Shown here one piece after another: positions 10,947 through 54,265 of a stretch of 64,000 nt of DNA. A model generated the notes under the pieces. It was not told the DNA's origin, searched no databases, and saw nothing but the letters and a program-made list of their open reading frames with translations. Location of the stretch: NCBI GenBank assembly GCA_002688105.1, contig NZBQ01000016.1, positions 30,851 to 94,850 on the forward strand, written 5' to 3'. Each line of letters opens with the position of its first letter. The stretch's first letter is position 1. The translations under genes and the position numbers were made by a program. The stretch comes from Dehalococcoidales bacterium. Lineage in GTDB: Bacteria; Chloroflexota; Dehalococcoidia; Dehalococcoidales; GCA-2688105.

Positions 10947-11030
10947 TTTTTTATTTTATTACAGGACACCTAGCCTCTTCTATTATCTTGAACACATAAC
11001 CCAAAAGCAGCAAAATACCGAGTGTTAATC

Positions 11031-11115
<85 letters not shown>

Positions 11116-11117
11116 GC

Positions 11118-11819: not shown

Positions 11820-11940
11820 ACTACGGTTGCACATTCTGGCTTGTTGTATAGTGGGAGGCAAGTTTCAACTTAAAGAGTGGTACAATTACTGGGGGCAGGG
11901 CAATGCTACTACCACAAGTCTGAAGCATAGGAGGAAAGAA

Positions 11941-13266: not shown

Positions 13267-13281
13267 TACTCTGTCTTAGCC

Positions 13282-13422: not shown

Positions 13423-13592
13423 TTAATCTACCTCCTTTTTAGAGGAGAATAGACTATTCACAGGTAGGATGTCAATATTCTCCCCAAATTGCACCTTTGG
13501 ACGTTGTCACTCTAGTTCTTCACCAACACCACTTCCTTCTCAATGGTTGTAACTACATTCCGCACGCATAGGGTAATCCAATGTTCCTTAAG

Positions 13593-13754
13593 GTATTGAC
13601 AACTTCGTAACGATGTATGCATAGTGGATACGATTTTTAAAGCCAGAATCGACCAAAAATATTAAAGGGGGAGTATTGACAACTACAGTAACGATGTGTA
13701 CATAATGGACACGATTTTTAAAGCCAGAATCGACCAAAAATATTAAAGGGGGAG
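13593..13754 (+). repeat. Tandem duplication (80 + 82 bp) of promoter, leader and RBS upstream of the catabolic cluster
   Basis: Each copy begins GTATTGACAACT (-35 TTGACA) and ends with an identical 48 nt, CGATTTTTAAAGCCAGAATCGACCAAAAATATTAAAGGGGGAG. Only copy 2 is followed by the ATG at 13764. Confidence 0.85.
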
Positions 13755-13763
13755 TAGAGAAAA

Positions 13764-14639: not shown

Positions 14640-14715
14640 GATTGTTAGTAGTGATGACCTCCGGGGTACGAAATAGTTGTGGTGAATAGATCGTTAACAT
14701 AACATAAGGAGAGGA

Positions 14716-15576: not shown

Positions 15577-15600
15577 AAAAACAAAGGCAGGTCATTAAAA

Positions 15601-16065
15601 GTGAAACAAGAGTTTGAATTCATATTAAATGGGGAAATCTGCGATGCTTATATTGAACCATGGCACTCCTTGTTAGATCTATTACGAGAGCAGTTCGCTC
15701 TAACTGGGGCAAAATCAGCGTGTCAATCAATGACGTGTGGTGCGTGCACTGTTCTTGTTGATGGTAAAGCTGTGAGGAGTTGCTCGATACTTGCACCTCA
15801 GGTGGAAGGAAGACATGTTGTTACTATAGAAGGGTTAGGTGGGGAAGACGGATTAGATCCTCTCCAGCAGGCTTTTATAGACCACTTTGCAGTACAATGT
15901 GGCTTCTGTACGCCAGGCATGATATTGACCGCTAAAGCCTTACTAGATGAAAACCCTAATCCCACAGAGGAAGAGGTGAGAATGCACCTAACCGGGAATT
16001 TATGCCGCTGTACCGGATACGTAAAAATAGTAGAGGCGATTCTGGCGGCTAGAAAAAAGGACTGA
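15601..16065 (+). CDS. Molybdenum hydroxylase [2Fe-2S] (small, CoxS-like) subunit
   Basis: Two cluster motifs are present: CQSMTCGACTV...C and QCGFCTPGM...CRCTGY. GTG start. Confidence 0.9.
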   Translation: MKQEFEFILNGEICDAYIEPWHSLLDLLREQFALTGAKSACQSMTCGACTVLVDGKAVRSCSILAPQVEGRHVVTIEGLGGEDGLDPLQQAFIDHFAVQCGFCTPGMILTAKALLDENPNPTEEEVRMHLTGNLCRCTGYVKIVEAILAARKKD

Positions 16066-16067
16066 CA

Positions 16068-17441
16068 GTGAAAACAATTATTGAACCCTTCCGAATTAAA
16101 TCCGTTGAGCCCATTACAATAAGTAACAGAGCTGCACGGGAATATTATCTGAAAGCTGCGCATCATAATCTGTTTCTCATACATTCAAGGGATGTAATTA
16201 TAGATCTCCTCACTGATTCCGGTACTGGAGCGATGAGCAGCGAACAATGGGCAGGTATTATGCGGGGAGATGAGAGTTACGCCGGCAGTATCAGTTTTCA
16301 GAGATTTGAACGGGTAGTCCAGAATATCTGGGGGTTTGAATACATTATACCAACTCATCAGGGACGTGCTGCTGAGCGGATATTATTTTCGGTGATATGC
16401 AAACCGGGTGATATTGTACCTAATAACACTCATTTTGATACTACCCGGGCAAATGTAGAATTTCAGGGTGCTGAAGCGCTGGATATTCCTATCCCTGAGA
16501 GCAAAGTTCCTGATATGTATCATCCATTCAAAGGTAATATTGACACTGATCAACTGAAAAAAGTGATCAAAAAGAATGGCATTAAAAAAATCCCTTTGAT
16601 AATGCTGACGATTACAAACAATGCCAGAGGTGGACAGCCCGTATCCATGGAGAATATTCGAGAGACATCTGAAATAGCAAAAGAATTCGGAATTCCGCTA
16701 TATCTGGATGCATGCCGATTTGCAGAAAATGCCTGGTTTATAAAACAGCGTGAAAATAGCTACCATGATAAATCCATCAAATCAATCGTATCAGAAATGT
16801 TTTCCTATGCCGATGGATGCACCATGAGTGCAAAAAAAGATGGTATCGCCAATATTGGCGGGGTATTATGTTCTAATGACAAGGAATTAGCCAAAAAAGA
16901 AAAGGATTTGCTAATTCTTACTGAAGGCTTTCCAACATATGGAGGACTTGCAGGCAGAGACCTAGAAGCAATTGCAATCGGTCTGGGAGAAGCAATGGAT
17001 GAAGATTACCTTCAGTACAGGATTTCATCAACCCAGTATCTGGGGGAACATTTACTGAAAGCAGGGGTACCCATTTTGCAACCCCCCGGCGGGCATGCTA
17101 TTTATATTGATGCTAAAACAATGCTGCCCGATATTAAACCTGAAGAATTCCCCGGTCAATCACTGATTTGTGCATTATACAAAGAAGCAGGAATCCGCGC
17201 AACGGAAGTAGGTAGTGTGATGTTTGGTAAGAAAGATAAACAAACCGGCAAAGAAATCCAAGCAGATATGGAACTGGTTCGGTTGGCAATACCACGGCGT
17301 ACTTATACTCAAAGTCATATTGATTATGTCATTGAAGCAATTTTGCAAGTAAACGAAAGAAAGGAAAATTTACGGGGATTGAAAATGACATACCAAGCAG
17401 AGTATCTCAGGCATTTTTCAGCACAGTTCAAACCGTTGTGA
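16068..17441 (+). CDS. tnaA: Tryptophanase-type beta-eliminating lyase (tryptophan indole-lyase)
   Basis: EPFRIKSVEP, DLLTDSGTGAMS and the PLP-Lys motif MSAKKDG. HFDTT (Asp) and LRHFSAQF (His) occupy the positions that distinguish tryptophanase from tyrosine phenol-lyase. The GTG start lies 2 nt after the small-subunit stop. Confidence 0.75.
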   Translation: MKTIIEPFRIKSVEPITISNRAAREYYLKAAHHNLFLIHSRDVIIDLLTDSGTGAMSSEQWAGIMRGDESYAGSISFQRFERVVQNIWGFEYIIPTHQGRAAERILFSVICKPGDIVPNNTHFDTTRANVEFQGAEALDIPIPESKVPDMYHPFKGNIDTDQLKKVIKKNGIKKIPLIMLTITNNARGGQPVSMENIRETSEIAKEFGIPLYLDACRFAENAWFIKQRENSYHDKSIKSIVSEMFSYADGCTMSAKKDGIANIGGVLCSNDKELAKKEKDLLILTEGFPTYGGLAGRDLEAIAIGLGEAMDEDYLQYRISSTQYLGEHLLKAGVPILQPPGGHAIYIDAKTMLPDIKPEEFPGQSLICALYKEAGIRATEVGSVMFGKKDKQTGKEIQADMELVRLAIPRRTYTQSHIDYVIEAILQVNERKENLRGLKMTYQAEYLRHFSAQFKPL

Positions 17442-17610
17442 TTATTTAAAACGGAAAACGTAATGCTTGAAATGTAAAGGTAGTCGTTAACTATTTTTCA
17501 TATCTTCTCCTATTTATGTTGTAAATATTCACGTTTTATCCAAGAGGTCCAGATGGGACTCTCAAGGAAATCTGGTTATTATTTCCAGGAATTTTGAAAG
17601 GGAACGGAAA

Positions 17611-19962
17611 ATGACTGAGTATAAAGTTATTGGCAAGAGTGTACCCAGGATAGATGCCCTAGAGAAGGTCACTGGTAGGGCCAAGTATACCTCAGACATT
17701 AAAGTGCCGGGTATGCTTTACGCAAAGATAAAAGGAAGTCCCTACCCTCACGCTAGGATTATTAATATTGACACTTCTAAAGCTGAGAAATTACGTGGAG
17801 TAAAAGGAGTAGTGACAGGGAAGGATGCACCACAGAAGCTTATTGGTTCACCCCTTGCTGACATGCCATTATTGGCTAATTATGGCATCGTTCGCTATGT
17901 AGGAGAACCTGTATCTGCAGTAGCTGCAGATACTATTGAGATTGCTGAGGAAGCACTTGATCTAATAGAGGTTGATTATGAAGAGTTGCCAGCGGTATTC
18001 GATGTGGAAGAGGCATTTAGGGAAAACGCACCAGTTATAGTACACCCAAAACTAAGTGATTATGAGCGTCTAGACAAAGACTTCCCAGAGATGGCGTGTC
18101 CTATTCAATTCGAGCCCAATAGGCCTAATGTCTTCACTCATTACAAGGTTCGCCAGGGCGAAGATGTGGAGGTGGGATTCCGCGAGGCTGATCTAGTTGT
18201 GGAGAATAGGTTTGTTACAGCTAGAGTACAGCACGTTCCACTTGAGACCCTGCAATGCATTGCACAGTACGACCTTAATGGAAGCATAACGATAATGAGC
18301 ACATTACAAGGCATATACCTGGGTAAAGCAGTATTTACTAATTATTTTGATATCTCTCCCTCTAAGGTAAGGGTGATTTCCCCATATGTAGGAGGAGCTT
18401 TTGGGTGTAGGACAGGTACATCGATGCAGTGTATCGCCATACTACTAGCACGAAAAAGCTTAAGACCGGTTAAATTGGCTTTTACTCGAGACGATGATAT
18501 GACTCTCGGTTTTCATAACCCTAACTTCGTTATTTATATTAAGGATGGGGTAAGTAAAGACGGTTATTTAACAGCTAGGCATATTAAGATATTGTATGAT
18601 GGCGGGGCATATGTTGCTGAACACTCATTATCTTTTGTTGCCCAATGTTCTGAGAAAGCATTGGCAACATACCGGATTCCTGCTTTTAAATTAGACACTT
18701 ACGGAGTGTACACTAATAAGACCCCAACCATTGCTATGAGGTCCGTTGGTGGTGTACAAGTAGCTTGGGCCCTAGAGCGACAAATGGACATAATAGCAGA
18801 AAGGTTAAATATTGACCCTACAAAGCTAAGAAGGAAGAACCTGCTAAAGGAGGGAGCAATAAACCTAATTGGAGAACCTGTTAGTAGTTTTGGCGCTAAA
18901 AAATGTCTGGATCAAGTGGCAAAATGGATGGAGAAAGCTGAGAAGCCTGAGCCTGAGGCAAACAATGTGTGGAAAATAGGGAACGGGATCTCACTTGGAT
19001 CACACTTCAGCATATGTGCCCCTATCTCAACTGCAACTGTGAAGCTTTACAGCGATGGGGTTATTGAAGTGGCCTATGCAGAAGATGAGCTTGGGCAAGG
19101 TTCTATGACTGTGCTGGCTCAGATCGCTGCCGAGGAGTTTGGAGTCTCCCTAGATAAAGTTAAGGTTGTGCGTGGGGATACAGCCAGTGCTCCTGTAGGT
19201 TTGGCTTCTGTCGCCAGTAGAACTACATATTTCGCAGGAAATGCCTTAGTACGAGCATGCCAAGAGGCTAAACGGAAGATATTTGCGCTGGCAGCGCCTA
19301 TGTTAGAGATGACCGCAGAAGAACTGGAAATGAGCGAAGGAAAGGTCTATGTCAAGGGAGTGCCTGATAAGGCAATTCTTATCAGTGACCTTTTTGGTCC
19401 TACTGGGGTAGCGCATGGATTGGAGACAATGGCAGGCAGAGGGGAACACAGAGATCCATTCATTGAAGCAGACCCCGAGACAGGTCAATCAAAGAAACTA
19501 TATACTTGGCATATTTATGGAGCTTATGGTGCACAGGTAGCAGTTAATGTGCAAACAGGCAAGGTTAAGGTCTTGAAGGCGGTTGGCGCTTATGACATGG
19601 GACGGGCGATAAATCCTAAGCTGTGTGAAGGGCAGATGGAAGGTGGTTTAGGTATAGGTCTAGGTATTGCTTTAAATGAGGCACTGGAATTTGATAAAGG
19701 AGCACTACTCAACCCTAATCTTATTGATTATAAGATGGCTACTGCTATGGAATTACCCAGTGTTGAGAACACCAAATCTATAATAGCAGCAGTTCCCTGT
19801 GATAGTGGACCCTATGGAGCCAAGGGGCTTGGTGAAATGACATCTGTAACCCCTGTGGCAGCAATAACAAATGCTGTCTGTAATGCTTTGGGGATAGCGA
19901 TAAACGAGATTCCAATCACGCGGGAGAGAGTGGTAAGGGCTCTTAAAGAGGCAAGAAAATAG
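17611..19962 (+). CDS. Molybdenum hydroxylase large (molybdopterin-binding, CoxL/XdhB-like) subunit
   Basis: 783 aa with the N-terminal a/b-hammerhead pattern (GKSVPRIDALEKVTGRAKYT.D), GGAFGCR, and AKGLGEM carrying the conserved catalytic-Glu context. It lacks the CODH VAYRCSFR-type loop. Confidence 0.85.
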   Translation: MTEYKVIGKSVPRIDALEKVTGRAKYTSDIKVPGMLYAKIKGSPYPHARIINIDTSKAEKLRGVKGVVTGKDAPQKLIGSPLADMPLLANYGIVRYVGEPVSAVAADTIEIAEEALDLIEVDYEELPAVFDVEEAFRENAPVIVHPKLSDYERLDKDFPEMACPIQFEPNRPNVFTHYKVRQGEDVEVGFREADLVVENRFVTARVQHVPLETLQCIAQYDLNGSITIMSTLQGIYLGKAVFTNYFDISPSKVRVISPYVGGAFGCRTGTSMQCIAILLARKSLRPVKLAFTRDDDMTLGFHNPNFVIYIKDGVSKDGYLTARHIKILYDGGAYVAEHSLSFVAQCSEKALATYRIPAFKLDTYGVYTNKTPTIAMRSVGGVQVAWALERQMDIIAERLNIDPTKLRRKNLLKEGAINLIGEPVSSFGAKKCLDQVAKWMEKAEKPEPEANNVWKIGNGISLGSHFSICAPISTATVKLYSDGVIEVAYAEDELGQGSMTVLAQIAAEEFGVSLDKVKVVRGDTASAPVGLASVASRTTYFAGNALVRACQEAKRKIFALAAPMLEMTAEELEMSEGKVYVKGVPDKAILISDLFGPTGVAHGLETMAGRGEHRDPFIEADPETGQSKKLYTWHIYGAYGAQVAVNVQTGKVKVLKAVGAYDMGRAINPKLCEGQMEGGLGIGLGIALNEALEFDKGALLNPNLIDYKMATAMELPSVENTKSIIAAVPCDSGPYGAKGLGEMTSVTPVAAITNAVCNALGIAINEIPITRERVVRALKEARK

Positions 19963-20138
19963 AGTGGGCTCGATTAGGAACTATCTGTGATAGAACGAGA
20001 TGGTAAATAGAAGTCCCATAATTACTAGAGTGCTGTAACGCTTAATCGATGATTTAATTATGAAGGAGGGAGTTGCCTATGAAGGAAGGATAATTCTAGA
20101 TTTATTAGGTACTAATAGAAAATAGGAGGTTACGATAA

Positions 20139-21335
20139 ATGAAAAAAAGAATGTTAATGCTACTGATTGCAGTGGTAGTGGTAACGAGCTTGGTTATTGC
20201 TGGTTGTGCGGCCCCAGCACCAGTGGAGAAATCACCAATAAAGATTGGTTTTGTTACCGACTACACCGGTTTCTTGGCTATTTATGGCCCGAAATGGGTA
20301 GCAGGCTTCGACCTTGCGTTCAAAGAGATCGGATGGGAAATCGCCGGTAGGAAGATAGAGGTAATATATGAAGACGGGGCAACCGACGAGACTATTGGCC
20401 TTGAGAAGGCAAAGAAGCTAGTGGAAGGTGACGAGGTAGACATCCTATATGGACCGGTTCACTCGTCAACGGTTAATGCTATTGCCCCCTATGCTACGAA
20501 CATGAAGATACCCTATGTGTTGTGCTTGGATAATGAGGTCGTACTTGAGAAATATGAGTATGTTTTTAACCCATTAGGGACCCTGCAGCAGCACTCTTCT
20601 CACTCAGGCACATATGCCTATGAACAGGGCTGGAGGACAGCTTCAATAATAACTCTCGATATGTTGGAGGGACATCTTTTCATGGAAGGCTTCAAAACTA
20701 TGTTTGAAGGGGCTGGCGGGACAATAGTTCAGGAGCAATATACAGACATGGCCACTGTAGATTTTGGCCCCTACCTAGCGAATCTAAAGGATGTCGATGT
20801 AGTAGCGGCGTGGTATCCAGGACCAGCAGGGCCGACGTTCGTTAAGCAGTATAACGAATATGGGTTTCTCGGGAGAGTACCGCTGTTAAGTGTAGTTCCC
20901 AGCGGTTGGATTGTGCCGGTAGAATTTCTCGAGGAACTTGGTGACTTAAGTGTAGGCTTACAGAGTGCAATCATCTACAGCAACGAAATTGACACACCCG
21001 CTAACAAGGCATTCATAGAGTCATCTCTTAAGTACTATGATAAGATGCCTTACTGGGAGGAGGCTGTGGCTTACGCAAGTGCTTCAGTAATTATTGAAGC
21101 ACTAAAAGCAACCGGAGGGGATACTGATCCTGAGAAAATACGCGAAGCTATCGAAACGATGGAGATCGAAACTCCCTTTGGCTCCTTACGCTTCGTTGAT
21201 AGGCCAGCGAGGTTCGCGGCTTATCCGGGGTACATCGTAGAAGTGGATAGAGTTAATGGCGAATGGATCCACCGTATAGTCGCTGAATATGATACTCATC
21301 CGCTAGACGGGATTGCTGAATACCCACCGAAATAG
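20139..21335 (+). CDS. ABC transporter substrate-binding lipoprotein (Leu/Ile/Val-binding protein family)
   Basis: Signal peptide plus lipobox LVIAGC, with type-I periplasmic binding fold sequence features. Confidence 0.85.
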   Translation: MKKRMLMLLIAVVVVTSLVIAGCAAPAPVEKSPIKIGFVTDYTGFLAIYGPKWVAGFDLAFKEIGWEIAGRKIEVIYEDGATDETIGLEKAKKLVEGDEVDILYGPVHSSTVNAIAPYATNMKIPYVLCLDNEVVLEKYEYVFNPLGTLQQHSSHSGTYAYEQGWRTASIITLDMLEGHLFMEGFKTMFEGAGGTIVQEQYTDMATVDFGPYLANLKDVDVVAAWYPGPAGPTFVKQYNEYGFLGRVPLLSVVPSGWIVPVEFLEELGDLSVGLQSAIIYSNEIDTPANKAFIESSLKYYDKMPYWEEAVAYASASVIIEALKATGGDTDPEKIREAIETMEIETPFGSLRFVDRPARFAAYPGYIVEVDRVNGEWIHRIVAEYDTHPLDGIAEYPPK

Positions 21336-21373
21336 TGGTTGAAGATGGTCGCCACTATCCAGAGGATATGCTA

Positions 21374-21433
21374 AAGCTAGGCAGATATAAGACACTGAAA
21401 ACACATCTGCCTAGCTTTATATGTGGTTTTTTG
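21374..21433 (+). terminator. Intra-operon hairpin / partial terminator after the binding-protein gene
   Basis: A 13-bp perfect stem, AAGCTAGGCAGAT...ATCTGCCTAGCTT, followed by TATATGTGGTTTTTTG. Confidence 0.5.
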
Positions 21434-21458
21434 ATTGCTCATCTTGGGAGTCAGTGAT

Positions 21459-22316
21459 ATGGAAGTTTTGTTGATAAATATTCTGAACGGACTTTCGTTC
21501 GGATTCATAATCTTCCTTTTGGGCAGTGGTTTATCATTAGTAATGGGCGTGTTAGGAGTTTTAAACCTAGCTCATGGTGCAATGGCTATGGTGGGCGCTT
21601 ATGTGGGAATATGGATAGCCCGGGCAACAGGCAATTTCTTATTAGGTGTTCTAGGAGGGGTGGTTGTTACCGGGCTTTTGAGCTTTGCGATAGAAAGATG
21701 GTTTTTACGCCGCCGTCATGGACTCATCCTTGATCAAGCATTGCTAACTGTGGGATTTCTCTATATTGCACAAGATGTGCTTCGCTGGATATGGGGACCA
21801 CATCCTCACGCGATCGATGCTCCTTGGATTTTTTCCGGCTCTATATTCATCGGGAAGCTGGGGTTCCCTACTTATCGTCTTGCACTTATGCTTATTGGGC
21901 TAATGGTGGCGATAGCTCTATATCTATTTGTGGAGAAGACCCGGACAGGTGCTATAATTCGAGCTGGGATGGATGACAAAGAAATGATAGTAGCATTGGG
22001 TGTAGACTACCAGCGAACTGCAACCTTGGTCTTCGTTCTTGGAGCAGGCTTAGCCGCCTTTGCTGGTTTCATGGGAGCGCCGGTGTTTGGAGCATACTTG
22101 ACTCTTGGGGTTGATGCCTTGCTTTTAGCAATATTTGTGGTCATTGTTGGTGGAATGGGGTCCGTGCAGGGGGCTTTTCTTGGGGCGATGGTAATCGGCC
22201 TCTTTGATGCTTTTAGTAAAGCCTATGTTCCTGATTTTTCCTGGCATATCCTTTATATTCTTCTAATTGTCATTCTGGTCTTAAGACCAGAAGGGCTTTT
22301 AGGAAAGAGGGTTTAG
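21459..22316 (+). CDS. Branched-chain-amino-acid-type ABC permease (LivH-like)
   Basis: The MEVLLINILNGLSFG start follows a GGGAG RBS (ORF track offers TTG 21435). It is a polytopic membrane protein. Confidence 0.85.
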   Translation: MEVLLINILNGLSFGFIIFLLGSGLSLVMGVLGVLNLAHGAMAMVGAYVGIWIARATGNFLLGVLGGVVVTGLLSFAIERWFLRRRHGLILDQALLTVGFLYIAQDVLRWIWGPHPHAIDAPWIFSGSIFIGKLGFPTYRLALMLIGLMVAIALYLFVEKTRTGAIIRAGMDDKEMIVALGVDYQRTATLVFVLGAGLAAFAGFMGAPVFGAYLTLGVDALLLAIFVVIVGGMGSVQGAFLGAMVIGLFDAFSKAYVPDFSWHILYILLIVILVLRPEGLLGKRV

Positions 22317-22317
22317 A

Positions 22318-23292
22318 GTGGCAAGGCTAGTTGTCGTGAGAAAACCTTGGTTTGTGAAGTTAGCGCCTTACATTATCAGTGCTATTGTCCTTGTCATAGT
22401 ACCGGCGTTTCTTCCTACGTATGTTCAAGGTATATTCACTAAGTTCGTAATTTTTGCGATATTTGCTATGAGTTTAGACCTTCTTTTTGGGTATGCCGGA
22501 CTTTACTCTTTAGGGCACGCGGCCTTTTTCGGTGTAGGAAGCTACACGACCGGCATCTTAATACTTCGTTTTGAAATAGACAGCTTCTGGGTCATTATTG
22601 CTATTGTTGTCCTGCTAAATCTTGTTATTGGTGCTGTCTTTGGAGCTATTGCACTTCGAGCATCTGGGGTATATTTCCTTCTTCTTACTGTCGCCTTGGG
22701 ACAGTTAATTTTTGTTACTGTGTGGAAATGGTATTCAATGACGGGAGGCAATAGCGGTTTGCCGGGTATACCTCGTCCAGAACTTGGCTTTCCTTGGGCT
22801 GCTTGGGACCCGGCCGGTTATTACTATTTCGTTTTGGGTTTCTTTGTCATTTGTTTTTTCTTACTACATCGAATCGTAAATTCTAGTTTTGGGCATACTT
22901 TGAAAGGCATTCAGGCAAATGCATTTCGGATGCGACACTTGGGTTATAACGTCTGGGGCTATCAGTATATCTCCTTTATCATTGCGGCAATATTCTCGGG
23001 AATAGCTGGTATGCTATTTGCATATTATATGGGTATTGCTGTTCCATCACATGCCGGTTTGACTAGCTCTATCCTTGTATTCCTCATGGTGGTTATTGGC
23101 GGTGCCGGTACACTTTTTGGCCCCGTTATAGGAGCTGGAGTGATAGTGCTTCTAGAGTTTTTTGTAAGCTTGTTAACCCCAGAGCATTGGCCTTTGGTCC
23201 TGGGGAGCATTTTTATCGCAACCATCATGTATTTTCGTGGGGGTTTAGGTGTCCACTTGCTAAAGTTCTGGCAAAGGATAAGGTATGACTAA
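22318..23292 (+). CDS. Branched-chain-amino-acid-type ABC permease (LivM-like)
   Basis: GTG start 1 nt after the LivH-like stop. GYAGLYSLGHAAFFGVG motif. Confidence 0.85.
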   Translation: MARLVVVRKPWFVKLAPYIISAIVLVIVPAFLPTYVQGIFTKFVIFAIFAMSLDLLFGYAGLYSLGHAAFFGVGSYTTGILILRFEIDSFWVIIAIVVLLNLVIGAVFGAIALRASGVYFLLLTVALGQLIFVTVWKWYSMTGGNSGLPGIPRPELGFPWAAWDPAGYYYFVLGFFVICFFLLHRIVNSSFGHTLKGIQANAFRMRHLGYNVWGYQYISFIIAAIFSGIAGMLFAYYMGIAVPSHAGLTSSILVFLMVVIGGAGTLFGPVIGAGVIVLLEFFVSLLTPEHWPLVLGSIFIATIMYFRGGLGVHLLKFWQRIRYD

Positions 23293-24040
23293 GGAAACGT
23301 TGAAAGTTGAAAACTTGTCAAAATCTTTCGGAGGTGCCCACGTACTGGAGGGCATTTTCTTCAGCGTAAAAGCTGGAGAATGTGTAGCGATAATCGGACC
23401 CAATGGAGCAGGGAAAACCACTTTGCTGAGTTTAGTTAGTGGTGAACTCCGACCCACAAGTGGTACAATATATCTTTTTGGTCAGATGGCTACTAATCAG
23501 AGCGTACAGCGTCGCGTTCGCCTTGGGTTAGGACGCTGTTTCCAAATAAATAGCCTCTTTCATGGCCTTACGGTGCTTGACAATCTTTTGCTAGCTCTCA
23601 AAAGCTCTCAGTCTCACTATTTCCAAGTGTTTCGGCCGATGACCACTTATACCAATTTACTTGTTGAAGCTAAGCAATTACTAAAATTCATTGGCTTACA
23701 GGAGAAAAAAAACGTGCTTATCAGCGACTTGTCTTACGGCGAGCAACGGCGACTAGAAGTTGCGCTCAGTCTAGCCACAAGGCCTAAATTACTATTATTG
23801 GATGAGCCGAGTGCTGGATTATCCAGCAATGAAGAAATTACCAGCCTTATCAACATACTTAGCGGCCTTACGAAAGACATCTCAATAGTTTTCTCTGCTC
23901 ATGATATGGACCTAGTTTTCCGTCTGGCTCATCGGGTCATTGTTCTTTACTATGGACAAATAATAGCCCAAGGAACACCTGAGGAAATTCAAGTCAATCC
24001 AAAAGTTCAAGAGATTTATTTAGGCGTTCAGGAGGAGTAG
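23285..24040 (+). CDS. ABC transporter ATP-binding protein (LivG-like)
   Basis: Walker A GPNGAGKTT, signature LSYGEQRR, Walker B LLLLDEP. It overlaps the preceding gene by 8 nt. Confidence 0.9.
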   Translation: MTKETLKVENLSKSFGGAHVLEGIFFSVKAGECVAIIGPNGAGKTTLLSLVSGELRPTSGTIYLFGQMATNQSVQRRVRLGLGRCFQINSLFHGLTVLDNLLLALKSSQSHYFQVFRPMTTYTNLLVEAKQLLKFIGLQEKKNVLISDLSYGEQRRLEVALSLATRPKLLLLDEPSAGLSSNEEITSLINILSGLTKDISIVFSAHDMDLVFRLAHRVIVLYYGQIIAQGTPEEIQVNPKVQEIYLGVQEE

Positions 24041-24067
24041 TTCAGTTTTTCAATAGGTGACCTTAAC

Positions 24068-24778
24068 ATGAAGATGTTAGAGATTAATGACGTTCATACA
24101 CATTATGGAGATGCTCATGTCCTGCACGGGATTTCGCTAGATGTTGAGGAGGGTTACACCACTACCATCTTGGGCCGCAACGGAATGGGAAAAACAACGA
24201 CCATTCGCTCAATCATTGGACTTACACCCCCACGCCGTGGCTCAGTTCGTTTCAAAGGGAGGGAAATCACCAACCTTCAGCCACATCAGATTGCTCGATT
24301 GGGTATCGGGTTAGTCGCCCAGGGGCGTCACATTTTTCCTTCACTGAGTGTGAAGGAAAACCTGTCTGTAGCAGCGCGAAGTAGAGGCAAAACTGGAGAT
24401 TGGTCTTTGGGAAGGGTTTATTCCCTGTTTCCGATTTTGAAAGAACGCGCCAATCTTAAAGGTAATCTCCTTAGTGGTGGGGAACAACAAATGTTAAACA
24501 TTGGTCGGGCCCTGATGACTAATCCACAGTTGCTTCTAATGGATGAGCCGTCAGAGGGCTTGGCGCCTTTGATCATTAAAGAAATTGAGCATGTTATCAC
24601 CGAGCTTAAAAGAGAAGGCCTCTCCATCTTACTGGCAGAGCAGAATCTGCGCTTGGGTTTAAGTATGGCTGATTATGTCTACATACTAGATAGAGGTAGA
24701 ATTGTATACGAATCTGTACCTGAAGAGCTAGAAAACAACGAGGAAATCAAGGCTAAGTATCTTGGAGTGACAAGTTAG
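24068..24778 (+). CDS. ABC transporter ATP-binding protein (LivF-like)
   Basis: Walker A GRNGMGKTT, signature LSGGEQQM, Walker B LLLMDEP. Confidence 0.9.
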   Translation: MKMLEINDVHTHYGDAHVLHGISLDVEEGYTTTILGRNGMGKTTTIRSIIGLTPPRRGSVRFKGREITNLQPHQIARLGIGLVAQGRHIFPSLSVKENLSVAARSRGKTGDWSLGRVYSLFPILKERANLKGNLLSGGEQQMLNIGRALMTNPQLLLMDEPSEGLAPLIIKEIEHVITELKREGLSILLAEQNLRLGLSMADYVYILDRGRIVYESVPEELENNEEIKAKYLGVTS

Positions 24779-24827
24779 TAGTTTGCAATACTTTTATAAA
24801 TATTGAAGTAGGGAGAGCTAATCAAAA

Positions 24828-25286
24828 ATGCTAATCGAGGGAAAGTTTACTTTAAATGCACCTATTCAAAAAGTATGGGATTTTCTACTTGAGCCGGGGA
24901 CATTGGCTTCCTGTATTCCAGGGGCAGAAGAAGTCAACGCTGTTGATGACAAGACATACGAAAGTATAGTGAAGCAGAAAGTTGGGCCTATTACAGTGAA
25001 GTTTAAATTTACCACGACTTTAACGGAAATGGAACCACCAAGATATTTGAAGGCAGTTGGCAAAGGAGCCGATATCGGTAAAGCCGGGACATTTGCTCAA
25101 GAAACTTTTGTTTACCTGACCGAAATTTCCGAAGAAGAAGTGGAGGTTTCATATAAGTCCAATGTCAGCTTAGTTGGACGATTGGCCGTTTTTGGAGACC
25201 GGGTAATGCGAAGCAAATCAAAGTCGGTGGGAGAGGAGTTTACCAGAAATTTACAGGAGAAACTGAAAAGTGACCTGGCTAAATAA
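24828..25286 (+). CDS. CoxG-like SRPBCC protein (Mo-hydroxylase accessory subunit G family)
   Basis: 152 aa, MLIEGKFTLNAPIQKVWDFLLEPGTLASCIPGAE, the typical CoxG N-terminus. Confidence 0.75.
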   Translation: MLIEGKFTLNAPIQKVWDFLLEPGTLASCIPGAEEVNAVDDKTYESIVKQKVGPITVKFKFTTTLTEMEPPRYLKAVGKGADIGKAGTFAQETFVYLTEISEEEVEVSYKSNVSLVGRLAVFGDRVMRSKSKSVGEEFTRNLQEKLKSDLAK

Positions 25287-25354
25287 CGCAAGATTAATAT
25301 AATTCTGTTACAATGCTAGTAAAACTAGGTTCTGCTCTATTCCAGTATCTGTTT

Positions 25355-25837
25355 TCATAAAGAAGCGATATCCTCTTCGGCAAGGAGTTTCACTCCTTTT
25401 GCATGGAGTACCATACACGCCTTAAGCGGATCATCTACACGGAGGATAATAACTGCAAACCCTTCTTTCTTCTCAACCATAGCGTACATATATTCTACAT
25501 TCAAATGCTCTTGTGCGATTATCTCAAGCACGTCAGCCAGTCCACCCGGCTTATCGGCCACCTCAACAGCTAGGACATCTGTTTCGATAAAGTGATATTG
25601 TGCCTCGTTCAAAGCCTTCCCACATGCATCAGGATCTGCCGCAATAAGTCGTACTGTTTCAAAATCGCGAGTTCCCGCTAGAGACAACGCATGAAGGTTA
25701 ATGTCTCTATTTGCAAGGTGTCTTGCGATTTCAGCGAGACTACCGGGCCTGTTATCTAAAAAAACAGCTACCTGGCGTACCATAAATGATTTCTCGACCA
25801 TCTTTAGTACTACTCCTTCCAGTTCTTGACGGCACAT
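25355..25837 (-). CDS. Tandem ACT-domain protein
   Basis: Two ACT-like repeats (VAVFLDNRPGSLAEI.., LAVEVADKPGGLADV..). The likely start is the internal Met near 25801. Confidence 0.7.
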   Translation of the reverse strand: MCRQELEGVVLKMVEKSFMVRQVAVFLDNRPGSLAEIARHLANRDINLHALSLAGTRDFETVRLIAADPDACGKALNEAQYHFIETDVLAVEVADKPGGLADVLEIIAQEHLNVEYMYAMVEKKEGFAVIILRVDDPLKACMVLHAKGVKLLAEEDIASL

Positions 25838-25881
25838 TGAAAAGTACCATTAGACTATATCTCTTGGCGTGCAATACCCAG

Positions 25882-26829
25882 CTAGTTTCCCTTTTCAATG
25901 CTACACATGACTTTAGCCAAGGCAATCGAGTGTAACTTTTCATCTGCTTTTGCAGTCCGTGAATCAATTAATATTAGGACTTTTGCTCCTACTGCTACAT
26001 GGATCAACATTCGATTCCCATAATACTGGAGACATTTGCAAAATATATTACCAGCTTCAAGGTTTGGCATAATAATAATGTCCGCGCTCCCGGCTACAGG
26101 TGACTCAATCCCCTTAAGCCTTGTAGAGTTCATATCAATGGCGTTATCAAGGGCAAATGGTCCATCAATAACACAGTTTTCTACTGCACCGTCCTGACAC
26201 ATTTTAACTAGGGCAACGGCATCAATAGTAGACTGAAAATCAGGATGGACCTTTTCCGATCCTGAAAGGAGTGCAACCTTTGGCTTCCTTATTCCCAAAC
26301 CGTGTGCAACCGCTACTGCATTTTGGATGATTTCGAGTTTCTGCCTTATCCCCGGTGAAATATTGATACCTCCATCACTTACCAGCACAAGTTGGTGCCC
26401 ATGTCTCTTCTTATCCTCATACACCGCTACATCACTCAGCAAGCCTCTTCTAAGATCACTAGGTGAGCTGAGAACTACCTGGAGGAACTTTGAGGTAACA
26501 ACACCTCCCTTCATCAATATGTCTGCGCGTCCTGACTTCGCAACGTCTGTAGCTGCAGCGACTGCCCTTTGTGGATCCTTTTCGTGAATAATCTCAAAGT
26601 CTTTTGGATTGACCTCGAGTCCGTGAAGCATGGTAGTAATCCAATAACGGTCCCCCGCAAGAATAGGTACTGCGACGCCTAGTTCTTTTGCCTTGACTAC
26701 CGCTTTTAGTGTCTCTTGTTCGTCTGCAACCACAACAGAAACATATTTAAGGTCACCCTTTTGAGCCGTATTCAGCAACTCTTTGAAGTTTTTTATCATT
26801 TCTAGAAGCCTCCCTGGAGATACTAACAC
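25882..26829 (-). CDS. Phosphate acyltransferase (phosphate butyryl/acetyltransferase family)
   Basis: Pta/Ptb-fold pattern (ADEQETLKAV..A.ELG, VSDGGIN, PNLEAGNI). The likely start is MIKNF at 26799. Confidence 0.75.
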   Translation of the reverse strand: MLVSPGRLLEMIKNFKELLNTAQKGDLKYVSVVVADEQETLKAVVKAKELGVAVPILAGDRYWITTMLHGLEVNPKDFEIIHEKDPQRAVAAATDVAKSGRADILMKGGVVTSKFLQVVLSSPSDLRRGLLSDVAVYEDKKRHGHQLVLVSDGGINISPGIRQKLEIIQNAVAVAHGLGIRKPKVALLSGSEKVHPDFQSTIDAVALVKMCQDGAVENCVIDGPFALDNAIDMNSTRLKGIESPVAGSADIIIMPNLEAGNIFCKCLQYYGNRMLIHVAVGAKVLILIDSRTAKADEKLHSIALAKVMCSIEKGN

Positions 26830-27023
26830 ATTCAGTGATCAGCGAATCCTATCCTGCCTGCTCATAAGCCATGGTGACATTCTACCACACTAATAGGCTA
26901 TGACCTGACCCCAGTAATCAGTCCATCTTTAAAGTTAGTCCCATCGACACAATTGCTTATATTGTGACATCAGTAGTGATCAATTGAATTTGTAAGAGTT
27001 TAGCAGGTCTTACGTATAAATTA

Positions 27024-27053
27024 TTGACAACCGGGTCTTAAGTGTGGTAATAT
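27024..27053 (+). promoter_or_regulatory. Strong sigma-70-type promoter inside the relic
   Basis: TTGACA, an 18-nt spacer, then the extended -10 TGgTAATAT. Confidence 0.5.
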
Positions 27054-27202
27054 ACATAAAAGCCCTGAAAAGGGCTTTCGGTGTTTCTAGATAGGTTGTC
27101 AACCTGATTTTTCAAGCAATGTCAACCTGATTGTTTAAAAACTGAATAGATTTTGGGCCGGTCCCAGCTTCAAAAATTGGCCGGAATTTAAAAATGTGAC
27201 AA

Positions 27203-27249
27203 CCTGACTTTTAATCAGGGTGTCACAGGTTCGAGACCTGTACGGCCTA
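27203..27249 (+). other. 3' portion of a tRNA-Lys(UUU) (anticodon arm to discriminator); candidate att-site relic
   Basis: CCTGA-CTTTTAA-TCAGG, GTGTC, ACAGG-TTCGAGA-CCTGT, ACGGCCT-A. It is close to bacterial tRNA-Lys(UUU) from the anticodon stem onward. The upstream sequence has no D arm and only a 5-bp acceptor partner. Confidence 0.6.
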
Positions 27250-27264
27250 CACTCTCAGAAGACC

Positions 27265-27283
27265 ATCCCCGCCGGGGATTTTT
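27265..27283 (+). terminator. Small hairpin plus T-run after the tRNA-Lys-like segment
   Basis: ATCCCC-GCC-GGGGAT followed by TTTT. Confidence 0.4.
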
Positions 27284-27287
27284 CAAT

Positions 27288-27332
27288 AAAATCAGGGTGT
27301 CAAGACACTAGGTCAACCGACACCCTGATTTT
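27288..27332. repeat. Perfect 14-bp inverted repeat (AAAATCAGGGTGTC / GACACCCTGATTTT) with a 17-nt loop
   Basis: Read directly from the sequence. The arms carry the AATCAGGGTGTC motif that also occurs in the tRNA-Lys-like segment. It could act as a bidirectional terminator. Confidence 0.6.
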
Positions 27333-27524
27333 ATTGTTTCGAGAAGTAAAAGTCAAAAGTACCTATACAGATTATTTTTGCTAAGAGGTTGTGTTCGTAG
27401 GACGGGGAGATTGAGTAGAGTCGAACTATACCTGAAACAAGGATGCTATGCTTTGTTTAGTCCGGTTCCAGTCTAACATTATAACTGGACTCCTTTTTGG
27501 GGGGCAGGTCATTTCCATCTAATA

Positions 27525-29318
27525 TTAGACAACTATGCTTAATAGCTCGTATCTATCCCCATCTAAAAGCACCAAGCCCTTGGTGCTAATCTTAAGTAAA
27601 GGCATGGTGCACATGGTCACGAACTCCAGGTTCGTCTGTGGTGCAATTAAAGTGCAACCCATTTCTCGCCACGCTTTCATTAGATTGTCCTGAGCCTTGA
27701 CCATCTCATCGAAAGGCAAGTCGGCCACCAGGCCATTCAACGGTGTTGGCAATGTTGCCACAAGCTTCCCCTGCCGAACAGCAGTAAAACCTCCATCCAT
27801 CTTAACTGTCTCGTTTGCCGCTACAGCCATATCTTCATCTGAAGCTCCGACGAGCACGATGTTCTCATTGAACACGTTTGCCGTCATCCCAATACACCCT
27901 TCACGAATATTGAAACCTTTGATAAAAGCCACACCGATCTCACCGGTTCCAAAGATTCTATCTATCATAGCAATCTTGTTAATCCCTTGGCTGGGGTCTG
28001 CCTGAATCTCACCGTTGACAACAGGTAGCGTCTCATGTGCCTCCAGTGCTTCCATTGTTCCATCTCGTGTGGTTATCACTCGTGCATTAACAGTTGGCCC
28101 AGCACCTGCTGGTGCCGGTACGCGGAAGTCCTCGGCTTTCAGAACACGGCTAATATTCATTGTTCCGTAGAGCCATTTTGGATACTCTGGTTGTTTTAAC
28201 TGTCTGGTAAGCTTACCATCCTCCACCCATACTTCTCCATTTGCAATAACCTTTGAGATTTGGAAATCAACCAGGTGTTCGACGAGCAGGATGTCGGCAT
28301 ACCTACCGGGCGCAATGATTCCCATGTCATGGTTAACTCGGAAGAACTCTGCCGGCTGTATCGTTGTCATCTGGATAGCCTTTATCGGATCCAATCCGTT
28401 CTTGATAGCTGTGCGTACTGAGTCGGCCAGATTACCACCTATGAGAGCGTCCGGGGTGAGTACATCGGTACATAGCACGCAGGTGCGCGAGGCGTGACCA
28501 CGCTGTGTGACCATTGGAAGAAGTTGCCGGGCATCATTGCACGCGCTGCCCTCTCGAACCACGATTTGCAGTCCAAGTTGAGTCTGGCGAATCGCCTCTT
28601 CAAGTAACACAACCTCGTGATTATTCAACGGGCCAGAAGCTATCCACCCATTCAAACCGCGTTCATCGTGCATCCAAGCGCCGTGGCCAGTGGGAACCTT
28701 ACCCTGGCGCAGACATTCCTCAAGTAACCGTAGGAGTCCTCGATCGCGACGCTCCCGCTGTAGTATCAGGTCGTAGCCAACCTCTTCAAGCCCTTTGGTT
28801 TCAGGCCAATTGAGAGCCTCAAACAAGTCTTCAATGGTTGGCACATTAGGTGATGGTGGGAAACCTAAGCAACGATTCTGGGAGTAACAGAGGGTGGGTA
28901 CAAGGAAGATCGGCTTTACCGGAGTCAGCAGCACTTCATCTAGAAAAAACCGAACAGCCTTGATGCCATTCACGATGGCATGTCCATAGAAACCATCTGC
29001 AAAAGCTGTAGTTCCATGCAAGAGCCTACAGGCAGCGAAGACCGTCGAATTGGTGTAGGTATGCCACTGGTGTGTGTGAGGGTCGACAAGACCCGGCACC
29101 AGAAACTGCCCCCCTGCATCTATAACCTTGGTTTTTGGACCAACCGTATACTCAATGTCTCCTAGTGCGGCGATACGAGAATCTTTGATAGCTATACCGT
29201 CAGTCTGGATGCCCCCTGTATGCACGTTAACTATCTGACCGTTAATAATCACTGTGTCTGCAGATTCATACCCCATAGCTACGTCTATGAGGGATTCACG
29301 CTCAAGCTTTACTGCCAT
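27525..29318 (-). CDS. Adenine-deaminase-family amidohydrolase (divergent)
   Basis: 597 aa with an Ade-like layout (GGQFLVPGLVDPHTH...LLHGTT) and an Ade-type C-terminal domain. The motif after HxH is QWH rather than the IES I recall in Ade. Confidence 0.55.
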   Translation of the reverse strand: MAVKLERESLIDVAMGYESADTVIINGQIVNVHTGGIQTDGIAIKDSRIAALGDIEYTVGPKTKVIDAGGQFLVPGLVDPHTHQWHTYTNSTVFAACRLLHGTTAFADGFYGHAIVNGIKAVRFFLDEVLLTPVKPIFLVPTLCYSQNRCLGFPPSPNVPTIEDLFEALNWPETKGLEEVGYDLILQRERRDRGLLRLLEECLRQGKVPTGHGAWMHDERGLNGWIASGPLNNHEVVLLEEAIRQTQLGLQIVVREGSACNDARQLLPMVTQRGHASRTCVLCTDVLTPDALIGGNLADSVRTAIKNGLDPIKAIQMTTIQPAEFFRVNHDMGIIAPGRYADILLVEHLVDFQISKVIANGEVWVEDGKLTRQLKQPEYPKWLYGTMNISRVLKAEDFRVPAPAGAGPTVNARVITTRDGTMEALEAHETLPVVNGEIQADPSQGINKIAMIDRIFGTGEIGVAFIKGFNIREGCIGMTANVFNENIVLVGASDEDMAVAANETVKMDGGFTAVRQGKLVATLPTPLNGLVADLPFDEMVKAQDNLMKAWREMGCTLIAPQTNLEFVTMCTMPLLKISTKGLVLLDGDRYELLSIVV

Positions 29319-34459: not shown

Positions 34460-34481
34460 CGAATAGGTAAAGCCCCCACGA

Positions 34482-34680
34482 TGACGTCAGATGTCAATAG
34501 TGGACACGAAACCTTTCATGCTGCCAGTAAACCTGCATAGTATCTCTGCTCATAGGCCACAGGTGATAGGAAACCAAGTCTTGGCTGCAAGCGCTGCCGA
34601 TTATAGAATATCTCAATATACTCTGTGATGTCTCGTATCGCCTACTGCCTGGTTCTATACCGGCGGTGGTAAGCTGTCAA
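34482..34680 (-). mobile_element. IS3-family remnant: terminal inverted repeat plus the last ~50 codons of the transposase
   Basis: The minus-strand translation is ..TRQ*AIRDITEYIEIFYNRQRLQPRLGFLSPVAYEQ.., an rve-type C-terminus with an internal stop. The terminus TGACGTCAGATGTCAATAGTGGACACG resembles the IS3 IR (TGA-N11-AATAGTGGACAC). Confidence 0.65.
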
Positions 34681-38499: not shown

Positions 38500-38594
38500 A
38501 AATCCCCTGGGCAAACAGCCTCAGTTAACCTTGCAGCATAAAGAATAGACAGTATCGGTTGATTTATTCTGGAGAGTATGCTAACCTTTGGCTG

Positions 38595-38872
38595 GAAAAG
38601 CAATGACGGAGAAGAGTAAGAGGATAACGAGCACCTAGCGAGTCTGGTAAGGTGAAAGCAGATGTGCTTGCCCCCTGAAAATCCCTCCCGAGCTACCAAC
38701 CGAACCGTAGTTTATAAATGAGACGACTTAGTAGGCTTGGTCGGGTGCGCCAGCCGTTATCACTGGCAATGGCATGATGATATGCCTTAAACGAGTGCTC
38801 CCACCTGAGGTGGGGGAAATAGGGTGGTACCACGGGTTTGATAAATCTCGTCCCTAAAGGGCGGGATTTTTT
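38595..38872 (+). promoter_or_regulatory. T-box riboswitch leader (Ile) controlling ileS, including its terminator (38845-38872)
   Basis: Stem I elements are present (AATGA..AGAGTA K-turn region, AGCGAGTC, GGTGAAAG distal loop). The T-box sequence is AAATAGGGTGGTACCACGG. The terminator stem ATCTCG(T)CCC-TAAA-GGGCGGGAT is followed by TTTTT. The candidate specifier is ATC at 38681-38683. Confidence 0.85.
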
Positions 38873-43209: not shown

Positions 43210-43525
43210 CTATGCCCCGGGTACCTCGGGCAGTGAAGTCAGCGCTTCTTTTACCTTCTCCGCGGGGTACTCATAATCCTGGAGTTTACCGGAGAGATAC
43301 TCATCATAGGCAGCCAGGTCGAAATGTCCGTGTCCACTATGAGCCAGTAGTATGGTTTTTGGCTCGCCAGTCTCCTTACACCTAAGAGCCTCATCAATAG
43401 TCGCTTTGATAGCGTGGTTTGTCTCCGGGGCACTGAGAATACCCTCAGTGCGGACAAAGGTTACCCCGGCTTTGAAGGTAGCCAGTTGGTGCTCGGCTCT
43501 GGCTTCAACCAGACCTTGACCTGCC
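43210..43525 (-). pseudogene. C-terminal ~105 codons of a TrpB2-type (tryptophan synthase beta-like) gene; 5' three-quarters missing
   Basis: The minus-strand frame reads GLVEARAEHQLATFKAGVTFVRTEGILSAPETNHAIKATIDEAL..ILLAHSGHGHFDLAAYDEYL..stop. It contains no Met and ends exactly at the IS-type terminal repeat. Confidence 0.6.
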
Positions 43526-43564
43526 CCCCAAAAAGGAGTCCAGTTATAATGTTAGTCCAATCCT
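43518..43564 (+). repeat. IS-type terminal repeat, copy 3 (solo)
   Basis: TGACCTGCCCCCCAAAAAGGAGTCCAGTTATAATGTTAGTCCAATCC. About 40 nt are identical to the reverse complement of 27472-27511, and about 74% match 26901-26946. Confidence 0.55.
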
Positions 43565-53437: not shown

Positions 53438-54247
53438 ATGGCTATGCTCTATAGTAACATAGTTATGCATACTCAAAGTCAGTCAGATGATACCATAACC
53501 TTTCTGGGGACGGGCGGCGCCAGATTTATGATTACCACCCAGATTTTAGCCTCGGGGGGCTTATGGCTGAACCTGAGTGGCACGGAGATACTTATTGACC
53601 CCGGGCCAGGCTGTATAGTCCAAGCCACCAAAAGGAAGCTAAGAGCCGATAAGCTCAGTGCTATTATTCTGTCGCACCGTCACCTTGACCATGCGGCAGA
53701 TGTCAACATTATGGTTGAGGCGATGACCCGGGGTGGATTCAAGCAGCACGGCTGGCTTTTGGCTCCGGCTGATGCCCTGAACACCGAACCGGTTATCTTC
53801 TCATACCTGAGAAGCTACCTGGAAGGCGTTGAGATACTGGAGGAAGGTAAGTCCTACTCCATAGGCAATGTCACCTTTACCACCCCAATTCGGCACATAC
53901 ACCCGGTAGAAACCTACGGCATGCGGTTTACCACCGCCGAGCATACCTTCTCCTATATTGCCGACACCCGCTATTTTGAGGGCCTGCGCCACAGCTATGA
54001 CAGTGAACTGCTGATTATCAATGTAGTCTTTGTAGAGCCTCGCCCTCCGGTTGACCACCTATCATTGCCTGATGCCGAGAGCATTATTACTGAAATAAAG
54101 CCCAAGGTCGCCATCCTGACCCATTTTGGTATGACTATATGGCAGGCAAAACCAGGGGAGATAGCCCGGAGGCTGTCCCAGGAAACCGGGGTCAGGGTGC
54201 TCGCCGCCCGGGATGGCATGAGGTTTGAGATGTCACAACTGGACTAG
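53438..54247 (+). CDS. MBL-fold metallo-hydrolase
   Basis: LSHRHLDH (HxHxDH). The last 4 codons and the stop lie inside the solo IS-type repeat. Confidence 0.75.
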   Translation: MAMLYSNIVMHTQSQSDDTITFLGTGGARFMITTQILASGGLWLNLSGTEILIDPGPGCIVQATKRKLRADKLSAIILSHRHLDHAADVNIMVEAMTRGGFKQHGWLLAPADALNTEPVIFSYLRSYLEGVEILEEGKSYSIGNVTFTTPIRHIHPVETYGMRFTTAEHTFSYIADTRYFEGLRHSYDSELLIINVVFVEPRPPVDHLSLPDAESIITEIKPKVAILTHFGMTIWQAKPGEIARRLSQETGVRVLAARDGMRFEMSQLD

Positions 54248-54265
54248 TTTTTGGGGGGCAGGTCA
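54237..54265 (-). repeat. IS-type terminal repeat, copy 4 (29-nt solo remnant)
   Basis: The reverse complement TGACCTGCCCCCCAAAAACTAGTCCAGTT matches the first 29 nt of the 43518 copy at 27 positions. Confidence 0.5.

Follow-up and report, generated by a model that had tools for sequence, protein, structure and literature searches.

Two probable solo ends of IS3-family insertion sequences around a putative tRNA-Lys attachment-site scar in a Dehalococcoidales genome

Insertion sequences (IS) of the IS3 family, solo IS ends and islands bounded by 3' fragments of tRNA genes are all well described. IS3-family elements possess terminal inverted repeats of 20-40 bp with a 5'-TG start and cause a direct target duplication of 3-5 bp. 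MITEs and mobile insertion cassettes are short, lack a transposase and are bounded by IS-like inverted repeats. Among integrative elements, lambda-type sites use a distinct arm-type sequence, and CIMEs, known from work on streptococcal ICEs, are cis-mobilisable remnants that are flanked by att sites and lack recombination genes. In Dehalococcoides, islands are described that have tRNA 3' fragments as direct repeats, with tRNA-Lys among their sites (PMC2764846; for sublocation classes it refers to Williams 2002).

We analysed 64,000 nucleotides of a Dehalococcoidales genome, in the following called the window, with regard to positions 26901-27511. These 611 bp had been proposed to be a single relic element bounded by inverted repeats and situated between island cargo and core genome. 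The position was confirmed: the GC content is 0.447 across 11903-26900 and approximately 0.50-0.52 in the core, thus the stretch is found where a low-GC island ends on the right. The unity of the element was not maintained, as the interior is an attachment-site junction and the two halves have different relatives. Most likely the 611 bp are a mosaic and not a single element, neither a MITE nor a deleted IS. We assign a probability of roughly 80 % to the reading that 26901-27511 represents two independent IS3 solo ends around the attR scar of a tRNA-Lys-targeting island. Among the three alternatives of the original prediction, two independent solo ends is the one retained, while a MITE and an internally deleted IS are disfavored. 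The stretch would then be ordinary genome wreckage of kinds already known; the IS and the integrative-island family seen here are undescribed members of these kinds.

The centre of the stretch would be an attR, left by recombination between an island and a tRNA-Lys(UUU) gene in the region of the anticodon stem, and a XerC/D-like tyrosine integrase would have driven the integration. From left to right, this putative attR would comprise the island arm, the 48-nt tRNA-Lys piece as crossover segment and the original chromosomal downstream region. The island arm would have brought a promoter that faces outward, a 5' hairpin and the half-site TGTCAACCTGATT as two direct repeats, and the chromosomal part a terminator and a conserved palindrome made of the same half-site. 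Two different IS3-family elements would have inserted nearby at different times, one on the island side and one on the chromosomal side, and the later deletion of each IS body would have left a stub of 47 nt on the left and of 56 nt on the right. The crossover segment between them assigns the left stub to island DNA and the right stub to chromosomal DNA. Because the tips of both stubs happen to point outward from the junction, the pair mimics the inverted termini of a small element. The stretch itself is unable to transpose, since a transposase is absent and the two ends do not originate from one IS. Sequence characters of an attR were present, namely an exact copy of the tRNA 3' part, flank matches on both sides and repeated half-sites; an attL was not visible.

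The attachment core, 27202..27249 on the plus strand, is the 48-nt 3' part of tRNA-Lys(UUU); it begins immediately ahead of the anticodon stem and ends with the discriminator base. It is 100 % identical to related intact genes, in agreement with the tRNA-Lys 3' fragment of the original prediction. A metagenome scan with one IUPAC pattern that covered both the IS end and the tRNA piece revealed the exact tRNA segment in at least 93 loci. Among the matches listed, these 93 loci comprised 38 intact tRNA genes, 37 of them called Lys-UUU, and 55 displaced 3' fragments, on the left of which foreign sequences of several kinds are attached. The 55 displaced fragments characterize the tRNA-Lys gene as a heavily used integration hot spot. 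Neither the tRNA piece nor the IS end had a match in viral contigs. Five independent same-strain assemblies break at 27187-27294, as expected if the tRNA sequence is repeated elsewhere. The Rfam tRNA model scored 27178-27249 at 31.6 bits (gathering score 29), and ARAGORN made no tRNA call for the fragment. A full-length tRNA-like RNA was considered and rejected: among the 12 arm loci listed only the window and L024 reached the threshold, so the tRNA likeness over the 71 positions of the Rfam hit is not a conserved property. The score of the hit originates from the authentic 3' portion.

To the right of the core follows the native downstream region B' (27250..27455, plus strand) with a terminator at 27265-27283 and a hairpin at 27284-27336. 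This hairpin includes the conserved palindrome 27290-27330, which reads ATCAGGGTGTC - 17 nt - GACACCCTGAT. The segment with terminator and palindrome, 27250-27340, matches the DNA downstream of intact tRNA-Lys genes in at least 11 loci, and the palindrome is placed 41-43 nt after the tRNA in at least 27 loci as well as in the window. A further part of approximately 120 nt is shared with the metagenomic locus L077.

To the left of the core lies the element-side arm P(a), 26948..27201 on the plus strand. Homology to other loci starts at about 26951, just past the left stub, with a conserved box at 26951-26968, and amounts to 80-86 % identity with the arms at 11 other tRNA-Lys junctions among the matches listed. 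The geometry is fixed across the loci: the 13-mer GGCCGATTCCAGC (27156-27168 in the window, 48 nt before the core) is located at -48 and two motifs at -106 and -83. The consensus-like promoter noticed earlier is present as TTGACA-18-TAATAT at 27024-27053; its -35 hexamer is invariant in the arms and its -10 is extended by an upstream TG. Of the two hairpins noticed earlier, both exist, the second one being that of the downstream region. The first, the 5' hairpin at 27059-27078, folds in all 11 arm homologues listed with -11.6 to -20.6 kcal/mol on different stem sequences. An RNAalifold analysis of the arm alignment yielded no convincing global structure (covariation term -0.82), and only the 5' hairpin was structurally conserved. 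The interior has no open reading frame beyond 54 amino acids (27220-27384, GTG start), and this one, which covers the tRNA piece, the terminator and the palindrome, lacks a Pfam match, in line with the earlier description. What had been left as unexplained contents, from the promoter and the tRNA piece to the hairpins and the repeated motif, belongs to the ordinary parts of attachment sites. For annotation, this means that the promoter, hairpins, pseudo-tRNA and repeats require no new gene or RNA family.

The 13-nt motif had been counted six times. The degenerate consensus TGWCAMCCTGAYT has five exact matches in the window, all within this region, where 0.03 are expected by chance, and a partial sixth copy is present at 27319. 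Two copies are direct repeats in the arm (27097-27109 and 27120-27132), 23 nt apart; another direct copy abuts the core (27197-27209) and has its inverted partner at 27213. In the core the layout is TGTCAACCTGA | CTTTTAA | TCAGGGTGTCA, and the motif equals the left half of the core. A partner arm was detected in at least nine loci after an intact tRNA-Lys. In order, it contains the inverted 13-mer GCTGGAATCGGCC overlapping a terminator, copies of TGTCAACCTGAtT, a ribosome binding site (RBS) and the ATG of an integrase. Among the matches listed, TGTCAACCTGAtT occurs as a pair spaced by 23-24 nt in seven of nine partner arms and as a single copy in two. This motif pair just upstream of the integrase ATG is the reason to read the 13-nt motif as an integrase site. 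All six copies are thus best read as putative integrase half-sites, two in the element arm, two flanking the anticodon loop and two forming the palindrome. The tyrosine recombinase of the partner arm, with a size of about 330 amino acids, has Phage_integrase and SAM-like domains and is devoid of a separate arm-binding domain. The repetition of core half-sites in both arms fits such an enzyme and differs from lambda-type sites, as the arms here repeat the core half-site.

A DEDD transposase gene 200 nt from the arm in L100 prompted the idea that the arm is the non-coding end of an IS110-family element with a bridge RNA. This idea was rejected: none of the other arm loci listed had such a gene, no 5' half of the tRNA was present at a second boundary, and the counterpart of the arm is that of a tyrosine integrase.

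The likeness to the tRNA-targeting tyrosine-integrase islands of Dehalococcoides (PMC2764846) includes the tRNA 3' fragment at the distal boundary, the low GC content, the crossover from the anticodon stem and an integrase remnant inside the island. Here, however, the intact tRNA-Lys of an attL is absent from the window, and the left side abuts tRNA-Leu. The integrase remnant, 145 amino acids and N-terminally truncated (11382-11819), adjoins this tRNA-Leu, is the only one in the window and has 34 % identity to the integrases of the arm family. The lack of an intact tRNA-Lys and of a working integrase in the window, together with the position of the remnant by tRNA-Leu and its 34 % identity, indicates a rearranged island. 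A tRNA-Cys/Leu/Lys cluster that could explain the missing attL showed no consistent synteny in relatives. The right neighbour of the stretch is an adenine deaminase gene (27525-29318, minus strand), whose product is 100 % identical to a protein of a Dehalococcoidales MAG at NCBI. Its closest homologues (71-76 % identity), among them P0003, P0007 and P0010 (71-75 %), had no shared neighbourhood in the search for an empty site. No protein record was found for the 315-aa ORF version of PTA_PTB. With CIMEs, the locus shares an att site with a full element arm and the lack of a working integrase nearby, but it holds one att junction only and there is nothing to excise. The locus presents a clean att-site anatomy for uncultured marine/sediment Dehalococcoidia. 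Near-identical contigs are present in several Tara Oceans assemblies, and the Dehalococcoidales MAG is marine.

The ends of the stretch were found letter by letter as quoted in the original prediction, the left one from 26901 onward and the right one, read as its reverse complement, from 27511. They are related, inverted and IS3-like: both start with TGACCTG and align with identity in 29 of 39 columns and one gap. Shuffling of the left end did not reach the observed score in any of 20,000 trials (best 22 versus 28). In the window, the 12-mer TGACCTGVCCCC has exactly four occurrences: 26901 and 43517 on the plus strand and 27511 and 54265 on the minus strand. The right stub (27456..27511, minus strand, tip at 27511, lost body to the left) is a solo left inverted repeat (IRL) with part of the orfA leader. 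An identical solo IRL is present at 43517..43557 on the plus strand, 165 bp upstream of a fabF-like gene; the identity is 39/39 to 43517-43555. A partial IRL of 29 nt at 54237..54265 on the minus strand, which overlaps the stop codon of a metallo-beta-lactamase-fold gene, matches the right end at 27 of 29 positions. The left end was identical to the copy at 43517 in 35 of 46 positions, which agrees with the 35 of 47 reported before for 43518.

The exact 39-nt right end was recovered from at least 16 metagenomic loci in the IUPAC scan, and among the matches listed an RBS and an orfA start follow this IRL in 13 of the 16. Two complete elements carry it, L043 (1211 bp) and L135 (1209 bp), each with orfA and an orfB in the -1 frame. 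The right stub equals their IRL in 39 of 39 positions, and the identity to L135 is 91 % over 56 nt. OrfB of L043 scored 246 bits on the NCBIfam IS3 model NF033516 (cut-off 160), and elements of this type have Pfam matches to HTH_Tnp_1, rve (DDE) and rve_3. The TGACCTGCCCCC ends and the orfA sequence may be IS407-group-like. The right inverted repeat (IRR) of L043 and L135, TGACCTGCCCCCATAAAGGATACCAC..., compares to the left end of the stretch with 27-28 positions (alignment score over 39 nt). The right end is thus a true IRL, and the left end is not its natural partner. A full-length element, as sought for the relic, thus exists for the right end, with an IRR that differs from the left end of the stretch.

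The left stub (26901..26947, plus strand, tip at 26901, lost body to the right) is a solo terminal inverted repeat with the signature CCCCAGTAAT. A degenerate pattern of 27 positions fitting this end was run on a species-representative genome collection (596 Gb) and matched nine loci, all of them IS3-type left ends of Chloroflexota. Approximately 25 nt further inward these loci have an RBS and an orfA start (M-x-R-K-x-x-T-P-E-Q-...) or remnants thereof, which identifies the matches as left ends of IS. The best match of the left stub was the IRL of L011 (33/38). Scores were 27-33 against IRLs and 23-28 against IRRs, and the composition is mixed: GTCCA is IRL-like, while TTTAAAGTTAG and the inner GTTAGTCC resemble some IRRs. 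By similarity, the left stub appears to be an IS3-family end, with no firm assignment to either IRL or IRR. Among the matches listed from the genome collection and the metagenomes, no full-length IS with a left-type end was recovered. Compared with the IS3 family in general, the locus shares the TG-initiated, imperfect terminal inverted repeats of about 40 bp and, with the right stub, the IRL of 1.2-kb orfA/orfB elements; it differs in that only the terminal 47 and 56 nt are left, in stubs of different subtypes, with neither transposase nor target duplication.

Separate histories of the two stubs become apparent from related loci. In L077, an intact tRNA-Lys is followed by DNA collinear with the window through the palindrome, over about 120 nt beyond it and on into an IS stub. 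The junction between this stub and the downstream region is the same as in the window; a degenerate IRL copy follows, and the sequences are unrelated beyond the tip. The sequence of L077 upstream of the tRNA covers 21 nt only. It follows that the right stub, together with its deletion junction, occurs beside a tRNA-Lys with an intact 5' half and in the absence of the island arm. On the other side, none of the 11 other arm loci listed had the left stub at the arm position, and in L030 the arm is abutted, 70 nt further inward, by another stub, which is of IRR type. A stub of this type is also present in L033, approximately where the right stub lies in the window. For the reading as two independent stubs, an inconvenient circumstance is that two of the five stubs in the window are only 611 bp apart with their tips outward, which has a probability of about 0.05 by a rough estimate under uniform placement. 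Solo stubs are common in this IS family, with five in the window and many in related loci, and the zones beside the att site have been hit repeatedly by IS in the relatives L030 and L033, which softens this improbability.

The fifth stub, of IRR type, is located outside of the 611 bp at 11865..11902 on the minus strand with its tip at 11902. It leads to a reading that refines the two-stub explanation and does not contradict it, and that we consider possible, somewhat short of probable: this stub and the left stub may be the remains of two copies of one IS, or of one IS on a circular donor, that bracketed and delivered a low-GC cargo of 15 kb between the integrase and the island arm, the left end of the 611 bp then being the boundary of the cargo insertion. 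The tips at 11902 and 26901 both abut the cargo 11903-26900, and both stubs have CCCCAGTAAT in common. By our own count, TGCCCTGCCCCCAGTAATTGTACCAC... of the 11902 stub is identical in 31 of 38 positions to the IRR of L065, which is attached to the 3' end of an orfB. An M20 peptidase gene has its true start, with an RBS, at a distance of 40 nt from the tip at 11902. In the subtype with both ends known, IRL and IRR share AAAGGA after the C run and differ in GTCCA versus TACCA; AGTAAT..GTCCA in the left stub and AGTAAT..TACCA in the 11902 stub fit this pattern, of which there are few examples. However, a full-length IS of the subtype was not recovered, so that the pairing depends on the shared 10-mer, the flanks are not duplicated, and the first 1.6 kb of the cargo have a core-like GC content of 0.499.

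A non-autonomous, IS3-derived MITE or mobile insertion cassette, mobilised by a transposase in trans and carrying the att-site DNA as passenger, is a very improbable source of the 611 bp. The stretch has the appearance of such a unit, with its small size, significantly similar TG-initiated inverted termini whose tips are the outer boundaries, and the lack of a transposase. The family does include internally deleted IS copies (L019, 271 bp; L014 and L017, 876 bp). Yet blastn and tblastx of the 611 bp against three full-length IS elements gave matches at the tips only (47 nt left, 56 nt right), without similarity of the interior to IS bodies. The interior is a contiguous att junction, collinear with loci that lack the ends, and judging by L077 the right end is either older than the left half or independent of it. 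Of 39 positions, 10 differ between the two ends, and the right end has a known cognate IRR, which is a different one. A target duplication is absent, as was already noted (flanks GGCTA| and |TTTCC); this is a weak criterion, for it is also absent around the full-length metagenomic copies L043 and L135. A second copy of the 611-bp unit was found neither in the window nor in the 142 loci listed nor in the same-strain contigs, which is weak evidence. Same-strain contigs continue from the right flank across the boundary and end only at the tRNA piece, which argues against a multi-copy unit. Compared with MITEs, the locus thus has a single copy as far as visible, non-cognate ends and an in-place integration junction as interior. 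As a caution for other genomes, facing IS stubs may pass for a MITE, their separate histories being visible only via related loci. That the stretch is one IS3-family copy which lost its transposase genes by internal deletion is the least credible reading and already contradicted, since about 500 bp are homologous to the att-site DNA of other loci and nothing IS-like exists beyond the tips, even though in L019 such a deletion fused the first 13 codons of orfA to the 3' end of orfB.

Within the two-stub reading, the orphan promoter of the arm may still give rise to a short RNA ending at the tRNA terminator. A more specific function, that the island arm is one half of an RNA switch coupling integrase expression to excision, appears unlikely. 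In the excised circle the arms would be joined, and a transcript from the arm promoter would pair the two 13-mers; the pairing would block the terminator, so that transcription could proceed to the integrase gene. With the island integrated, the terminator would fold and the integrase would be off. The window would have kept only the orphan first half. The substitutions in the 13-mer retained pairing in five of eight types, with P=0.006 against all substitutions and no significance against a transitions-only null (estimate ~0.3). In the partner arm the inverted 13-mer overlaps the 5' half of the terminator just before the integrase gene. Folding of chimeric arm-core-arm transcripts predicted a long-range helix in four of six combinations, and transcripts of the tRNA plus the partner arm were predicted to fold as a cloverleaf and a terminator.

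One tRNA-Lys(UUU) sequence is a hot spot of integration among the matches listed from the metagenome scan (loci L023-L142). Displaced tRNA-Lys 3' fragments occurred in 55 of the 93 loci, and the left-hand sequence joined to them was foreign and of several distinct kinds (among the matches listed). Several distinct integrase-proximal arms among the matches listed at these loci carried their own tandem arm-type repeats, e.g., GCTAACATTTTGCTAACATT. A palindrome of the form ATCAGGGTGTC-17 nt-GACACCCTGAT was located 41-43 nt past the tRNA-Lys in the window (27290-27330) and in 27 related loci among the matches listed, including L033, L061, L077 and L100. In this set the loop was as conserved as the arms, and in a sole case among the matches listed, L101, the 17-nt loop was inverted. 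By sequence, the arms of the palindrome at 27290-27330 are a putative integrase half-site.

In locus L100, oriented with the tRNA piece on the plus strand, an IS110-family (DEDD) transposase gene lies on the minus strand at about 10809-12077. Some 200 nt separate it from the island arm, the element-side arm of the integrative element family. The bridge-RNA element suggested by this gene was rejected, as no such gene was present at the other arm loci among the matches listed. A 434-aa integrase ORF with an Arm-DNA-bind_4 domain in locus L079 (651-1955, minus strand) crosses the tRNA-Lys core segment and stops within the adjacent arm, thus its C-terminus would differ after recombination. This course across the core may be an artefact of ORF calling. 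The window itself contains an N-terminally truncated tyrosine integrase gene (11382-11819, plus strand; 145 aa, Phage_integrase positions 48-171) directly after tRNA-Cys and tRNA-Leu (11031-11115). Judged by eye, 11128-11283 is a possible N-terminal integrase fragment; Pfam gave no support for such a fragment there.

Between the truncated integrase gene and an M20 peptidase gene, a fifth IS3-family end stub of the IRR type was located (11865-11902, minus strand), sharing CCCCAGTAAT with the left stub at the tRNA-Lys scar (26901-26947). The tips of these two stubs bracket a 15-kb low-GC cargo. The IRL terminating the right stub (27456-27511) has two further solo copies. The copy at 43517-43557 (plus strand) precedes a fabF-like gene by 165 bp, and the copy at 54237-54265 (minus strand) provides a metallo-beta-lactamase-fold gene with its final codons and stop. 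Both point inward, enclosing 10.7 kb of core-like genes.

A small Cys-rich ORF of 46 aa, MQAYCVKCKAKREMKDARSITMKNGRPATQGVCPACGTKMFRIGKS (13279-13419, minus strand), may be island-borne. Six relatives had it near tRNA-Lys loci with 75-81 % DNA identity (among the matches listed), although not always at the same place or on the same strand. An 81-bp unit is present twice in tandem at 13593-13756 (92 % identity between the copies), upstream of an ORF starting at 13764. Both copies contain a promoter-like box of the TTGACA type and an RBS-like box, GGGGGA. The intergenic stretch 34477-34674 had about 83-85 % identity to loci L078 and L057 (tblastx, both strands) and no Rfam match at the gathering threshold. 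A T-box leader (38594-38858, plus strand; Rfam, 105.8 bits) is situated upstream of a 1022-aa ORF (38895-41963).
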